DNA of 7,929 bases from a virus (lineage: Duplodnaviria > Heunggongvirae > Uroviricota > Caudoviricetes): the IMG/VR virus record IMGVR_UViG_2690316273_000016; one strand, 5' to 3'. The notes beneath the pieces are model-generated. The model was not told where the DNA came from, ran no database searches, and saw only the letters and a list, made by a program, of their open reading frames with translations. Positions 1,450-7,929 of the stretch are shown piece by piece (within the stretch, counting starts at the first letter, position 1; the number at the start of each line of letters is the position of its first letter). Both the position numbers and the translations under genes were made by a program.

Positions 1450-1638
1450 GTGTTAAGCACAGATCGCTTTATACGTGAAAAAGAATGTCAGCAACTTACA
1501 GGCCTGAGCCGCTCATGTCGGTATCGCCTGGAGAAGACCGGACAATTCCCATCACGGCGTAAACTCGGCGGTCGTTCCGTTGGCTGGTCTTTATCCGAAG
1601 TTCTGGCATGGAAGGACAGCCGCGAGGCAGTTCACTAA
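1450..1638 (+). CDS. alpA: AlpA-family phage transcriptional regulator (HTH)
   Basis: 62 codons, GTG start at 1450 four nt after GGGGG (1441-1445), stop TAA 1636-1638. The segment LTGLSRSCRYRLEKTGQFPSRRKLGGRSVGWSLSEVLAW fits the AlpA family pattern (TG-S--Y---G-FP---LG-RSVGW--EV--W). Position directly downstream of a P4-type integrase is typical. Confidence 0.85.
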   Translation: MLSTDRFIREKECQQLTGLSRSCRYRLEKTGQFPSRRKLGGRSVGWSLSEVLAWKDSREAVH

Positions 1639-3721: not shown

Positions 3722-5532
3722 AACTGGCACCGAACGTAAAACAGCAGTCACGCGGCATAAAACACAAAGAAACAGAAGTCATTATTTTTGCGGGTAGTGA
3801 TGCCTGGTCACACGCAAAACAATGGCAGGAACATGACGCGCGTATGGCCGGAGATAATGAGCCTCCTGTGTGGCTTGGGGAGCAGCAGTTATCCGAACTG
3901 GATAAGCTGCAAATTGTGCCGGAAGGCAGAAAATCCGTGCGCATATTCAGGGCCGGATATCTTGCGCCAGTAATGATAAAGGCGATTGGTCAGAAGCTGG
4001 CGGCGGCAGGCGTACAGGATGCAAATTTTTATCCTGAGGGTATGCACGGTCAGGAGGTGCAGAACTGGCGCGGATATCTGGCCCGTGAGCGCCAGAATCT
4101 TTCTGATGGTCTGGTGATTCAGCTTCCTGTTAAGAAAAAAACAGAAGACAGCGCCGCACCACTGGCGCTTAACCAGATGGGAGCAAGCCAGCGCGGCGAA
4201 GTTCTCCTGGCACATTATGGCGGTGAACTGGCGATTCATGCCGACTCTGACACTGTTCACCATTACAACGGCGTTGTATGGGAGCCGATTCAGGATAAAG
4301 AGTTACAGCGTGCTATGGCGCAGATTTTCATTGATGCGGAGATCAGCTATTCGCAGAACGCCATTAAATCGGCGGTCGATACCATGAAGTTAAGTTTGCC
4401 TGTAATGGGGAATACAGCCCGTAACCTGATTGGATTCAGTAACGGGGTATTTGATACCAGAACAGGTAATTTTCGGGAGCATAACAAAAACGACTGGTTG
4501 TTAATTGCCAGTGAATTACCTTTCAGCCCACCAGCAGAGGGGGAAACGCTGGCAACACATGCGCCGAATTTCTGGAAGTGGTTACGCTGCTCGGTGGCAG
4601 AGAATGACCGCAAGACGGATCGCGTGCTGGCTGCATTATTCATGGTGCTGGCGAACCGGTACGACTGGCAGTTATTCATTGAGGTAACAGGTCCAGGGGG
4701 AAGTGGTAAAAGCGTGATGGCGGAGATTTGCACTATGCTGGCGGGTAAGGCCAACACAGTATCGGCAAGCATGAAGGCGCTGGAAGATGCAAGGGAACGC
4801 GCGTTAGTGGTTGGCTTTTCGCTGATTATCATGCCGGATATGACCCGCTACGCTGGTGATGGCGCAGGAATTAAGGCCATTACAGGCGGTGACAAGGTGG
4901 CAATCGACCCGAAGCATAAAGCCCCCTACTCAACACGCATTCAGGCGGTCGTGCTGGCGGTGAACAATAACGCCATGTCATTCAGTGACCGCAGCGGGGG
5001 GATCTCACGTCGTCGGGTGATATTCAATTTTTCGGAGGTTGTACCGGAGAACGAGCGCGACCCCATGCTGGCAGAAAAAATAGAAGGAGAGCTGGCGGTT
5101 GTGATTCGCCATCTGCTTACTCGTTTTTCTGACCAGGACGAAGCTAAACGCCTGCTGTATGAGCAGCAGAAATCAGAAGAAGCTCTGGTGATAAAACGCG
5201 AGGGCGATTCGCTGGTGGACTTCTGTGGCTATCTCATGTCGTCGGTAATGTGTGATGGTCTGTTAGTGGGTAATGCCGAAATTATTCCGTTCAGTCCGCG
5301 CAGGTATCTTTATCACGCCTATCTGGCATATATGAGGGCACACGGATTCGGTAAACCTGTAACACTGACGCGCTTCGGTAAAGATATGCCGGGGGCAATG
5401 GCGGAATATGGCAGGGAGTATATAAAACGGAAAACGAAGCACGGTTTGCGTTCAAATGTGACACTGACAGAGGATTCAGAAGACTGTATGCCATCATGTG
5501 CATCGGTCACAAATGACGACAGCAAAAATTAA
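3718..5532 (+). CDS. P4-family phage/plasmid primase C-terminal domain protein (D5-like SF3 NTPase/helicase); element replication initiator
   Basis: 604-aa ORF. Walker A GPGGSGKS (…FIEVTGPGGSGKSVMAEI…). Flanking blocks (NGVFDTRTGNFREH…, …ITGGDKVAIDPKHKAPYS…, …RRRVIFNFSEVVPENERDPMLAEKI…) match the conserved layout of P4-family primase C-terminal / D5_N-type proteins. SD GGGGG precedes the start. Confidence 0.88.
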   Translation: MKLAPNVKQQSRGIKHKETEVIIFAGSDAWSHAKQWQEHDARMAGDNEPPVWLGEQQLSELDKLQIVPEGRKSVRIFRAGYLAPVMIKAIGQKLAAAGVQDANFYPEGMHGQEVQNWRGYLARERQNLSDGLVIQLPVKKKTEDSAAPLALNQMGASQRGEVLLAHYGGELAIHADSDTVHHYNGVVWEPIQDKELQRAMAQIFIDAEISYSQNAIKSAVDTMKLSLPVMGNTARNLIGFSNGVFDTRTGNFREHNKNDWLLIASELPFSPPAEGETLATHAPNFWKWLRCSVAENDRKTDRVLAALFMVLANRYDWQLFIEVTGPGGSGKSVMAEICTMLAGKANTVSASMKALEDARERALVVGFSLIIMPDMTRYAGDGAGIKAITGGDKVAIDPKHKAPYSTRIQAVVLAVNNNAMSFSDRSGGISRRRVIFNFSEVVPENERDPMLAEKIEGELAVVIRHLLTRFSDQDEAKRLLYEQQKSEEALVIKREGDSLVDFCGYLMSSVMCDGLLVGNAEIIPFSPRRYLYHAYLAYMRAHGFGKPVTLTRFGKDMPGAMAEYGREYIKRKTKHGLRSNVTLTEDSEDCMPSCASVTNDDSKN

Positions 5533-5544
5533 ACTTATGGAATA

Positions 5545-5775
5545 ACTGTTCACCACTGTTCACCCTGTTATAAATATCTTTTATATCAGTACATTATAGG
5601 GTGAACAGTTATTTGTGAACTGTTCACCAAACTATTCACTGTTCACCTTTTTGATTATTTATTGAGCTTTAAGGGTGAACAGTGGTGAACAGTTGGTGAA
5701 TAGTTTTTGTGAAACTGTTCACCCCTTAACATTATGAATAAAAAGGGAAAATCTCAAAAGGTGAACAGGTGAAGG
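5545..5775. repeat. Iteron array in both orientations (CTGTTCACC / GGTGAACAG) with AT-rich spacers; putative replication origin
   Basis: Forward TGTTCACC at 5547-5554, 5557-5564 (two tandem 10-bp ACTGTTCACC units), 5621-5628, 5640-5647, 5716-5723, plus variant CTATTCACT at 5632-5640. Reverse GGTGAACAG at 5600-5608, 5674-5682, 5684-5692, 5760-5768, variant GGTGAATAG at 5695-5703, half-site GTGAAC at 5615-5620. Lies directly 3' of the primase gene. Confidence 0.6.
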
Positions 5776-5819
5776 GTTAAAATGCAAAAATTTTATTTTA
5801 TTGCTGTGAGGTAAAGCCT

Positions 5820-6065
5820 GTGACAACGAAGCACGCAAAAAAACCACAATCTCACGCCCTTGATTTGACAGAACACTGGCTGAGGGTGGCGATAAAAATC
5901 ATCGACCGCAACGCGGGAGAAGGGTACGCAAAAGCACATCCCGAACTGATAAGCGCATTCATGACCACGGCGGCAGCAAACTTTGCCACGCTGACAGAAC
6001 GGGAGATTGCCGAAGCGGAACAGGTGACAACCATCAACGTTAAAACCGGAGAGCAGACAGCATGA
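5820..6065 (+). CDS. Hypothetical protein (81 aa), first gene of the accessory operon
   Basis: GTG start at 5820, GAGGT (5808-5812) 7 nt upstream; stop TGA 6063-6065 overlaps the ssb ATG at 6062 (ATGA). No family recognised by eye. Confidence 0.5.
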   Translation: MTTKHAKKPQSHALDLTEHWLRVAIKIIDRNAGEGYAKAHPELISAFMTTAAANFATLTEREIAEAEQVTTINVKTGEQTA

Positions 6066-6487
6066 CAGCACAGATAGCGGCTTACGGGCGGCTGGTGGCT
6101 GACCCGCAGTTAAAGACCACCAGCAAAGGGACACAAATGGCGATGGCGAGTATGGCGGTTCCCCTGCCGTGCAGCCAGGCAGATGACGGAACGGCGACGA
6201 TGTGGTTATCTGTCCTGGCGTTTGGCAGACAGGCCGACGCACTGGCAAAACACCACAAAGGCGAACTGGTGAGCGTGGCGGGTAACATGCAGGTGAGCCA
6301 GTGGACAGGCCAGAACGGGGAAACGCGGCAGGGCTGGCAGGTTATTGCAGACAGCGTAATCAGTGCGCGAACGGCGCGACCGGGCGGCAAAAAAGGTCAA
6401 CAGGGCCAGGCCACTGACGCACTGAACAGGGCAAAACAACAGACAAGCCAGCACGATGACCCGTACGGGGATAACATACCGTTTTAA
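6062..6487 (+). CDS. ssb: Single-stranded DNA-binding protein (SSB), OB-fold with acidic C-terminal tail
   Basis: 141 aa. N-terminal and core blocks parallel canonical SSB (IAAYGRLVADPQL resembles VILVGNLGQDPEV; MWLSVLAFGRQADALAKHHKGELVSVAGNMQVSQWTGQNGETRQGWQVIADSV resembles the SSB L45/OB core). A low-complexity G/Q-rich linker precedes a C-terminal …DDPYGDNIPF matching the SSB partner-binding tip (D-I-P-F). Confidence 0.85.
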   Translation: MTAQIAAYGRLVADPQLKTTSKGTQMAMASMAVPLPCSQADDGTATMWLSVLAFGRQADALAKHHKGELVSVAGNMQVSQWTGQNGETRQGWQVIADSVISARTARPGGKKGQQGQATDALNRAKQQTSQHDDPYGDNIPF

Positions 6488-6523
6488 TTCACAACAGCGA
6501 ACAGAGTAATTACAGGGGAAGGC

Positions 6524-7054
6524 ATGACAACGCTGACCATTAACCGGAAGCCGAAAGGCATTTACGGCACGCCGCAGAAAACGACGCAGGCGGCGCAAGA
6601 GCAGGATAAAACCACATCGGCGCATAAAGTGATACCCGGCAATCAGAACGCACAGCAGAAGCCCACAGGGGCGACACCGTGGCAGCATATGACCAAAAGG
6701 CAGCGCAAAAACCGCCGACGCGTTAACCGCCTCACTGAGATGTGGCCTGACTTATTCAGCCATAAAGCACCGAAGCCGCTTAAGGTGGGGATATTCGACG
6801 ACCTGATGCAGGATATCGCCGTCAGGGGGCTGGCATTCGGGCCGGGGGTATTACGTGCGACGCTGGCATCCTATGCGCAGTCTCCGCGCTATTACCGCGC
6901 CCTGATAGCTGGTGGCGCACGTTACGATCTGAAAGGCCAGCCATGTGGGGAAGTGACACCACAGGAACAGCAGGAGGCAGAAACACGGCTGATGGTGCTG
7001 AATGAGAAGCACAAGCGCCAGCGCCGGGCAGCAAAGGGGGATACATGCCAGTGA
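6524..7054 (+). CDS. FinO/ProQ-domain protein (putative RNA chaperone)
   Basis: 176 aa. Basic, low-complexity N-terminal half, then a block MWPDLFSHKAPKPLKVGIFDDLMQDIAVRGLAFGPGVLRATLASYAQSPRYYRALIAGGARYDLKGQPCGEVTPQEQQEAE that aligns by eye with the F-plasmid FinO core (WWPGLF…GIRDVLLEDVAQR…[40 protein letters not shown]). Stop overlaps the next ATG. Confidence 0.8.
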   Translation: MTTLTINRKPKGIYGTPQKTTQAAQEQDKTTSAHKVIPGNQNAQQKPTGATPWQHMTKRQRKNRRRVNRLTEMWPDLFSHKAPKPLKVGIFDDLMQDIAVRGLAFGPGVLRATLASYAQSPRYYRALIAGGARYDLKGQPCGEVTPQEQQEAETRLMVLNEKHKRQRRAAKGDTCQ

Positions 7055-7293
7055 CATTTGAAGAAGTTCAGCAACATAAAAAGCTTCATGGTTTTGATGA
7101 TCTGGAAACCACGACAGCAAAAAAATATCGTCGGTTGCTTTCTTCCGATGCGTTATTTTTTGTGGATCATCATGATTTTCTGCGTAGCTCACTGACCGGG
7201 GAAATTTTCGCAACCAACCGTGAGCAGGTGGAAGCGATGATCGAATATTTGTGGAAAATAAGACGCAGAATGCGGGAGCCAGTGAAACAATAA
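7045..7293 (+). CDS. Hypothetical protein (82 aa), last gene of the accessory operon
   Basis: ATG 7045 four nt after GGGGG (7036-7040), overlapping the upstream stop (TGA 7052-7054); stop TAA 7291-7293, followed immediately by an intrinsic terminator. No family recognised. Confidence 0.6.
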   Translation: MPVTFEEVQQHKKLHGFDDLETTTAKKYRRLLSSDALFFVDHHDFLRSSLTGEIFATNREQVEAMIEYLWKIRRRMREPVKQ

Positions 7294-7302
7294 AGCGATA
7301 AA

Positions 7303-7329
7303 GGCCCGGATTTTTTCCGGGCCTTTTTT
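7303..7329 (+). terminator. Rho-independent terminator closing the accessory operon
   Basis: Stem GGCCCGGA (7303-7310) / TCCGGGCC (7316-7323), loop ttttt, then TTTTTT (7324-7329), ten nt after the stop of the last ORF. Confidence 0.75.
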
Positions 7330-7347
7330 CAGGTTTTGTAAATTATT

Positions 7348-7377
7348 TGTTCGTGGTTGTTCCAGGTTGTTCGGTGA
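7348..7377. repeat. Three tandem 10-bp units TTGTTC-N4 (ttgttcgtgg / ttgttccagg / ttgttcggtg), inverted copy of the 1121-1170 array
   Basis: Read directly; its reverse complement (caccgaacaacctggaacaaccacgaacaa) matches 1148-1166. Sits just upstream of a candidate -35 at 7390. Confidence 0.5.
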
Positions 7378-7389
7378 TTCTGGCTGATG

Positions 7390-7417
7390 TTTACATACTG
7401 ATTTTTATGTATATGTT
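7390..7417 (+). promoter_or_regulatory. Candidate sigma70-like promoter for the capsid operon
   Basis: -35 TTTACA (7390-7395), 16-bp spacer, -10 TATGTT (7412-7417). Predicts a leader of about 140 nt before the ATG at 7567. Weak, sequence-only. Confidence 0.3.
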
Positions 7418-7566
7418 GGCGTGTGGCACTCAGACGTGAGCCGCCACAATGCCGCCTGACCCCCTGCGCGATGCCGGGTTGATCTGCGAGATGCCGAGAG
7501 TGTCGGGCGGCGCTCCCCCCGTGTTGGTTTCACGTCCTGAATCTTAACCAATGCGAGAAAACCTTC

Positions 7567-7929
7567 ATGAAGAAATTAATCGAACTCCGCCAGCAAAAAA
7601 CCGCCCTGAAAAACCAGATGCGATCCCTGCTGGAAAAAGCCGACAGTGAAAACCGCAGCCTGAACGATGACGAAGGCAAACAGTTTGATGAACTGCGTGC
7701 AAAAGCCGATTCCCTCGACACAGAAATTTCCCGCCTCGAGTCTGTGGCTGATGAAGAACGTAACCAGCCTGGTGTTCCCGTCGAAGATAAAATCACCAAA
7801 AATGAGCTACGCTCTTACATTCTGACCGGGGAAACCCGCAACCTGTCCGGCAGTGTTCCGGCTGATGGTGGTTATACGGTTATCCCGGAACTGAACAGAG
7901 AAATTATGCGTCAGCTTTCTGATGAGTCG
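7567..7929 (+). CDS. HK97-family major capsid protein, N-terminal 121 aa (3'-partial, runs off the window)
   Basis: Not in the ORF track (no stop inside the window). ATG at 7567, open in frame to 7929. Translation: a charged coiled-coil-like N-terminus (MKKLIELRQQKTALKNQMRSLLEKADSENRSLNDDEGKQFDELRAKADSLDTEISRLES…) followed by …PADGGYTVIPELNREIMRQLSDES, matching the characteristic GGYLVP-E---I--L motif near the start of HK97-fold capsid proteins. Confidence 0.7.
   Translation, partial: MKKLIELRQQKTALKNQMRSLLEKADSENRSLNDDEGKQFDELRAKADSLDTEISRLESVADEERNQPGVPVEDKITKNELRSYILTGETRNLSGSVPADGGYTVIPELNREIMRQLSDES

Follow-up and report, generated by a model that had tools for sequence, protein, structure and literature searches.

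Introduction

Capsid-forming PICIs (cf-PICIs) have been defined as islands of ~15 kb with a dedicated att site that encode the set from HK97-type capsid to TerL, without tail or lysis genes (bioRxiv 10.1101/2022.09.08.507074). In the prototype EcCIEDL933, an alpA mutant was neither induced nor transferred (bioRxiv 10.1101/2022.09.08.507074), and alpA overexpression has been used to drive reproduction of this island (bioRxiv 10.1101/2025.02.11.637232). The AlpA protein of EcCICFT073 activates PalpA, not Pint, and is required for induction and transfer, while its overexpression alone leads to excision and replication (PMC6092414). A link of this protein family to recombination is known from SEN1998, the AlpA-family RDF of ROD21, which binds attL and attR (PMC8844411). 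The step that leads from helper-induced alpA to excision, replication and capsid production in Gram-negative PICIs, and especially in cf-PICIs, has not been worked out. In the searchable literature, we found no description of AlpA binding sites, boxes or footprints or of capsid-operon regulation in cf-PICIs; a paper on Shewanella CP4So covers H-NS binding only and reports no AlpA sites.

For TorI of KplE1, which shares the fold of AlpA, the sites are known; it binds GTTCG/GATCG/GTCCG units arranged in one block of two and one block of three, the latter with 2-nt separations that give a 10-bp period (PMC2951348). These boxes are flanked by the att core and the Int arm sites, with the last unit abutting the -35 hexamer of PintS (PMC2951348). 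Read in K-12, the TorI-box sequence is caGTTCGtcatgGTTCGcttcaGATCGTTGACA.

Small excisionase-type proteins with more than one role are also known from the P2/P4 system, in which Cox and Vis occupy multiple direct repeats spaced by about one turn of the helix and act in excision as well as in promoter switching, including P4 late/morphogenetic promoters; P4 late promoters also need Delta/Ogr. Head-to-tail oligomers on direct repeats are formed by two further proteins with a MerR/Xis-like winged-helix fold, lambda Xis in its microfilament (X1-X1.5-X2) and BldC of Streptomyces. To our knowledge, lambda Xis has no role at late promoters and BldC is not a recombination factor.

Here, we analysed a stretch of 7,929 nt from the IMG/VR record IMGVR_UViG_2690316273_000016, referred to as the window; bare coordinates are those of the window, and L001 and similar designations stand for other loci. 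From the exclusion of Int, the analogy to TorI and the gene content of the island, we propose, with a probability of roughly 55%, that three TTGTTC-N4 units upstream of the capsid operon are AlpA boxes that couple capsid-operon transcription to induction.

Results

The window covers the left half, or 8 kb, of a capsid-forming PICI. This island, of the EcCIEDL933 type and ~14.6 kb long, is inserted at the 5' end of allE in the E. coli chromosome. At least 80% of the window is present in 19 complete genomes. Comparison of the annotated locus L001 with the empty K-12 site identified the att core as a 22-bp duplication (L001 11655-11676 and 26317-26338), the positions of which give the island length. 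The gene order in strain AST240 is int, alpA, a YlcI/YnfO-family gene, an icd-like and further small ORFs, primase, ssb, a ProQ/FinO gene and orf82, followed by the genes for the HK97-type capsid, protease, portal, connector, HNH, terS and terL. The locus L001 thus holds int, alpA, primase and ori together with the capsid and packaging set of a cf-PICI. Three genes of the window are needed in the following:

1-1074, + strand: int, P4-type tyrosine integrase with an arm-binding N domain (PF13356); the 5' end is cut by the window
1450-1638, + strand: alpA, winged-helix protein of 62 aa from the excisionase/AlpA family, which we propose to bind the TTGTTC units
7567-7929, + strand: 5' part of the HK97-type major capsid gene (RefSeq: phage major capsid protein), first gene of the packaging operon

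Between alpA and the primase gene, a 373-aa ORF listed at 1691-2812 is not a gene; RefSeq has only a partial pseudogene there, and leftward genes and terminators occupy this region. Two identical 11-bp near-palindromes GTGTTCAACAC (2460-2470 and 2501-2511) flank TTGACG-17-TAAATT (2471-2499), a predicted promoter for early rightward transcription, which diverges from the YlcI/YnfO-family gene (2230-2409, - strand). The pair resembles an operator pair for a repressor; no repressor has been defined for Gram-negative PICIs.

The region directly upstream of the capsid operon is composed as follows:

7300-7329, + strand: intrinsic terminator (-25 kcal/mol, z = -5.6, then a T run), which ends the ssb - ProQ/FinO - orf82 unit
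7334-7346, + strand: conserved TTTTGTAAATTAT block, which always precedes the right array and is also kept in the Klebsiella loci L216 and L217
7347-7376, + strand: right array, three 10-bp units TTGTTCGTGG / TTGTTCCAGG / TTGTTCGGTG; proposed AlpA boxes
7390-7417, + strand: predicted sigma-70 capsid promoter with -35 TTTACA (7390-7395), 16-bp spacer and -10 TATGTT (7412-7417); 9 of 12 consensus matches
7422-7448, + strand: hairpin with the loop GACG, at the very start of the leader predicted for the capsid mRNA

The TTGTTC hexamers of the right array occupy 7347-7352, 7357-7362 and 7367-7372 on the + strand in an exact 10-bp register. The first-pass annotation had recorded three repeats at 7348-7377; the repeats are real, while the span had been set one base too far to the right. 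Its inverted partner array was recovered as well (arms 1142-1166 and 7347-7371, 25 nt, 96% complementary), as was the position of the array behind the strong terminator of the preceding operon, and the distance of about 12 bp that it gave between the repeats and TTTACA is roughly right, with 17 bp counted from the last hexamer and 13 bp from the last 10-bp unit. The motif TTGTTC-N4-TTGTTC with at most one mismatch has six matches in the window against 0.07 expected, a number reached in none of 200 shuffles, whereas lone TTGTTC hexamers are not enriched (11 vs 6.1 expected); it is hence the 10-bp register that carries the signal. In the whole of the 31.8-kb locus L001, only three exact 5-mer arrays with at least three units and a 10-bp period exist, all of the TTGTTC motif. 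A possible degenerate fourth unit, TTGTAA (7336-7341), lies 11 bp before unit 1 within the conserved TTTGTAAATTAT block.

Counted from the predicted +1 (7424), the units start at about -77, -67 and -57, with the hexamer centres at about -74, -64 and -54. The succession of terminator, TTTGTAAATTAT, three units, 17-19 bp, -35, 16 bp, -10 and a leader of 150-230 nt recurs in related islands, and the order terminator, array, promoter was found before every HK97-type capsid gene sampled (~30 loci with 23 distinct upstream sequences in three leader families). Exceptions among the 23 upstream sequences are one with a point-mutated middle unit and one with a mutated third unit. The position of the -35/-10 pair is retained across the three diverged leader families, with the hexamers TTTACA/TATGTT in the L001 type, TTTACC-16-TATTCT and TTTATC-16-TATTCT in the other families (in both of which 19 bp separate the last hexamer from the -35) and TTTACT-16-TATCTT in a Klebsiella record. 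By blastn, 523 of 5,426 E. coli genomes match the region. Between the L001-type and EDL933-type leader families, only the array block (7320-7377) still aligns among the matches listed. No phage of the INPHARED set was seen to have the array, which suggests that it was added in the satellite to a capsid module of phage origin.

The GACG-loop hairpin begins 5-6 nt after the -10 hexamer in all leader families, including Klebsiella, and for three of its four inner pairs the families differ by compensatory changes; this conserved position supports a predicted transcription start near 7422-7425. The remainder of the 145-nt capsid leader is GC-rich and structured (z = -2.2), and a ProQ/FinO-family gene is located just upstream. 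In a search of the window against Rfam, no match reached the gathering score. The Klebsiella cf-PICI record L216 has a degenerate right array and a displaced -35, which is separated from the -10 by an inserted hairpin.

The same motif recurs inside the island and at both of its ends, where it is accompanied by a second repeat:

1117-1166, - strand: left array, five 10-bp units in register, TTGTTCGTGG, TTGTTCCACG, TTGTTTCACA, TTGTTCGCCG and TTGTATCTGT
1938-1953, - strand: two-unit site, TTGTTTTCCC TTGTTC, just before a leftward terminator; also in L009, L063 and L064
L001 11800-11824 and 26229-26253, one pair per att arm: tandem 12-bp GGTGTAGTTAAT x2 pairs, likely Int arm-type sites

The left array lies between int and alpA and is inverted relative to the right array. 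Its register is perfect in all islands with the AlpA allele A1; TTGT never varies, in contrast to the diverging positions 5-10, and such an invariant core with drifting spacers is the pattern expected of selected binding sites. No nearby promoter could be assigned to the left array with confidence. The best candidate for an alpA promoter (1359-1387) is ~190 bp downstream and in the opposite orientation, so that simple class I geometry or proximity does not explain an autoregulation of alpA. Two further elements were noticed in this gap: a perfect 16-bp palindrome CAGTATGCGCATACTG (1092-1107), which follows immediately on the int stop, ahead of the left array, and is kept in some, not all, related islands, and a hairpin at 1261-1289 between the left array and alpA, which is terminator-like on the - strand (T6 tail) and has a stem held by compensatory changes in related islands.

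A scan of the whole island revealed TTGTTC-type 10-bp units on both att arms, outside the window. The left arm, upstream of int, bears two three-unit blocks (L001 11684-11713 and 11756-11785) and the right arm two units (L001 26195-26214); on each arm, the block closest to the tandem GGTGTAGTTAAT pair sits 13 bp from it. Of these pairs, the left one precedes the int ATG by ~20 bp and window position 1 by about 200 bp, and the right one is found at the right end of the island. Repeats about one helical turn apart are thus found within the att arms and beside the likely Int arm sites, which links the TTGTTC element not only to a promoter but also to site-specific recombination.

To assign the two repeats, we drew on E. 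coli genomes and IMG/VR for a comparison of about 100 related islands. The GGTGTAGT pairs vary with the N-terminal domain of Int in three classes while the TTGTTC units stay constant, a co-variation within one Int family, as all E. coli matches carry the same one. Islands with the Int strand NLSVRHSTSGLLTWYFTY have GTTAAT or GTCAAT pairs, those with NLSVKYLTSGKLTWYFTY have GTCACT or GTCATT pairs, and the divergent Int of L113 is accompanied by GTGTATTGCA x2. The NLSVKYLTSGKLTWYFTY class was seen in two AlpA backgrounds that are also found with the NLSVRHSTSGLLTWYFTY class, including islands with identical AlpA. Since only the pairs co-vary with the Int N domain, we assign the GGTGTAGT pairs to Int as its arm sites and the TTGTTC units, unchanged across all three classes, to another protein. 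A search for islands that combine the same AlpA with an unrelated integrase, carried out as an AlpA scan of genome contigs, gave three loci, and the two distant ones are without TTGTTC arrays.

Encoded beside int, AlpA is a small winged-helix protein of the Xis/TorI/AlpA type. It matches PF05930 (E = 2.7e-18), and its structure model (pLDDT 88) finds in Foldseek the GIsul2 excisionase 8C3T as best match (TM 0.80-0.86), with RdfS, TorI and BldC also among the matches; a search of the PDB and the literature for 8C3T gave no DNA-site information. At the sequence level, AlpA is related to TorI with E = 8e-5 and ~26% identity over 42 residues. Beyond Int, AlpA and the primase, no sequence-specific DNA-binding protein is recognisable in the island, and the small ORFs gave no match to a DNA-binding family. 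With Int excluded, AlpA is left as the one recognisable protein with sequence-specific DNA binding that these islands share, and hence as the likely reader of the units. The first-pass annotation had taken the placement of the right array for that of a class I activator site at a late or morphogenetic promoter; the conserved position close to the promoter and upstream of the -35 without overlap would suit such a site, while the likely binder is the excisionase-type AlpA rather than a generic late activator. We infer both AlpA as the binder and activation at the capsid promoter.

The YlcI/YnfO-family protein was rejected as binder since it is absent from EDL933-type islands, which retain the arrays. 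An unbiased IMG/VR scan for three TTGTTC-N4 units yielded, outside PICIs, matches to unrelated repeats, none of them informative on the binder; the sole recurrent non-PICI family with an identified context lies directly downstream of a primase-like gene. A role as replication-origin iterons was discarded as well. The ori region of the island (5540-5770), downstream of the primase gene, has its own, distinct iterons, many copies of GTGAACAG/CTGTTCACC in direct and inverted orientation, and the same TTGTTC arrays are found with D5_N-type and DUF927-type primases.

Capsid-forming islands with the AlpA allele A2 (about 55-60% identical) have the same right array and no array between int and alpA. 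Either A2 reads the same TTGTTC core or another factor reads the right array in these islands. The flanks of the arm units differ between the two groups (TTGTTYCA with allele A1, TTGTTCGY with A2), which could reflect lineage drift rather than co-variation.

Discussion

In the mechanism that we propose, a helper phage would turn on alpA, and AlpA would then trigger excision and switch on or gate the capsid-operon promoter. Its protomers would line up head to tail along a single face of the double helix, one for each turn. From the boxes beside the Int arm sites AlpA might direct excision, and the boxes between int and alpA might serve feedback of AlpA on its own expression. The boxes before the capsid gene, about 55 to 77 bp upstream of the operon start and with hexamer centres from -54 to -74, would have the geometry of an upstream activator site. 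The units are most likely docking sites of AlpA, as the same motif stands beside the chromosomal attachment sites and beside the capsid promoter. We can imagine a more far-reaching version, in which a single excisionase-type protein and one 10-bp box would run excision, self-amplification and capsid firing, with AlpA filaments bridging the inverted interior arrays into a 6.2-kb loop that couples the regulatory and morphogenetic ends of the early region; this we regard as a long shot.

Could the TTGTTC units instead be arm sites for the N-terminal domain of Int, with constitutive Int also sitting on the interior arrays as a repressor or architectural protein? Int does have an arm-binding domain (PF13356), the units occur on both att arms as arm sites do, and the P'1-P'3 sites of lambda are tandem arm sites with a 10-bp period. 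Moreover, the strands of the Int N domain are the same in A1 and A2 islands, both of which retain the units. However, it is the GGTGTAGT pairs and not the units that co-vary with the Int N domain, and these pairs, placed 2 + 2 on the arms and directly upstream of the int ATG, already resemble the P' sites of KplE1 (PMC2951348). Two unrelated motifs would not be expected for one arm-binding domain, and contiguous arrays as long as 5-6 units are a trait of excisionases rather than of Int, so that we consider Int an improbable reader of the units. A reader supplied by the host or the helper phage, be it a response regulator of the OmpR/PhoB type or a helper-encoded inducer of alpA, appears rather unlikely to us for different reasons. 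Direct repeats at a 10-11-bp period are a hallmark of the OmpR/PhoB family, and the 'tor box' of TorR (CTGTTCATAT) shares TGTTC with the units. A2 islands retain the right array despite their different AlpA, and helper phages activate alpA transcription via an unidentified factor (PMC6092414). Yet the fixed distance of 13 bp to the Int arm sites on both arms points to an element-encoded recombination partner, and helpers as different as lambda, phi80 and a P22-like phage all induce these islands (PMC6092414, PMC11773190), which makes one shared helper DNA-binding protein unlikely.

The units might also be bound, by AlpA or by another protein, without activating the promoter, and act in repression, insulation, a block of read-through or looping to the left array 6.2 kb away. 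There is a precedent in TorI, which represses PintS from its three-unit block (PMC2951348), but the repressing TorI box abuts the -35 whereas the units described here stop 13-17 bp before it without overlap. The two interior arrays are mutually inverted, yet A2 islands are without a left array with which the right one could pair. With 9 of 12 matches, the promoter of L001-type islands is not particularly weak, whereas EDL933-type islands have a weak one (TTTACC / TATTCT) that probably needs help. Capsids are formed spontaneously by cf-PICIs, even without a helper (bioRxiv 10.1101/2025.02.11.637232), but AlpA activates wherever it has been tested in PICIs (PMC6092414). Taken together, binding without activation is an unlikely, though not far-fetched, explanation. 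Far less credible, in our estimate, is an array without function, either left over at the junction where recombination linked the capsid module with the PICI backbone or duplicated from part of an att arm. PICIs are mosaic, and TTTGTAAATTAT together with the units forms the left border of the capsid module and adjoins varied upstream genes. Such a remnant would hardly explain that the hexamers and their register are exact in >500 E. coli genomes while the flanking sequence has diverged beyond alignment, or that the core of the left array is invariant while its spacers drift.

AlpA boxes thus remain the reading that we prefer, and the wiring that they would suggest is a sensible, if hypothetical, one of a known type, that of dual excisionases and regulators such as Cox, Vis and TorI. 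If true, AlpA would be one more excisionase that a phage satellite has recruited to regulate late genes, like Cox/Vis, and no new principle. The AlpA-box reading is directly testable: a defined 10-bp box provides a testable regulon map that comprises both att arms, the gap between int and alpA, the site at 1938-1953 and the capsid operon, five arrays in all. Telling the Int arm sites (GGTGTAGTTAAT pairs) apart from the excisionase sites is useful for the engineering of such islands as DNA-delivery vehicles.

Compared with KplE1 (CPS-53), whose TorI sites at attL/PintS are the closest case known, the likeness extends to the protein, since TorI is also an element-encoded winged-helix excisionase (~65 aa), to the core GTTCG, which resembles TTGTTCG, and to a block located by a -35 hexamer through which the excisionase doubles as regulator. 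In contrast to TorI, which represses int, AlpA is predicted to have a positive effect, at a capsid promoter several kb from att; furthermore, the TorI boxes described are on attL, whereas units were found here on both arms. P2 Cox and P4 Vis share with the role proposed for AlpA the combination of excision and promoter control in a satellite/helper system, although Cox belongs to a different sequence family.

Classical PICIs of the EcCICFT073 type have the same AlpA family and allele group and the same int-alpA layout with an array in between (L008). Unlike the islands studied here, they carry neither an HK97 capsid operon nor a three-unit array, and at most a two-unit TTGTTT array is present before their packaging genes. 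In L008, this is TTGTTTTTAA TTGTTT at 20262-20277, ~260 bp upstream of lambda-type capsid/decoration/terS genes; equivalents are present in L027, L030, L037-L039, L062 and L080, and may be the counterpart of the right array.

The AlpA of Pseudomonas aeruginosa has the name in common with the 62-aa protein, without any sequence relationship, and both would act positively on a lysis- or late-type operon. It is a Q-like protein of >140 residues, of a type with an N-terminal ring-forming segment, that binds GGGACG between -35 and -10 and loads onto RNA polymerase (PMC7969949, PMC9371919). An antiterminator loading site of this type was rejected for the right array, which differs in position by lying upstream of the -35, and the AlpA encoded here consists of the winged helix only.

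CP4-57 of K-12, from which the name AlpA derives, shows the same attL layout as the PICI. Its attL (L218 530-660) contains (G)TCCG units at 10- and 20-bp spacing, followed by TAGGCCCAWYGA x2 (12-bp period) ~40 bp before the intA ATG. In L113 (IMGVR_UViG_2778261094_000010, 6600-8700), a capsid-forming island lies inside a prophage terminase large-subunit gene (helper-embedded type); besides its divergent Int with GTGTATTGCA x2 arm sites, it has two AlpA-like genes right after int and the same three-unit array before the capsid gene.

Two database records of phages contain related material from Klebsiella. L216 (LR881103.1, 'Escherichia phage vB_KppS-Ant', 16.5 kb; regions 4790-5120 and 7130-7324) is a packaged cf-PICI genome starting at terS, in which attP is intact, with TGTATAAACA x2 on both arms and three arrays of 10-bp period upstream of an AlpA-like gene (CATTCAACAG x4, GACACGTAAC x3 and TGTTCATCA x5). 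The 106-kb record L217 (PQ569648.1, Klebsiella phage P12620-1) carries at its right end, at 4400-7700 of the locus, a cf-PICI-type promoter and leader with a capsid/protease/portal block, which may be an assembly chimera or a captured satellite.
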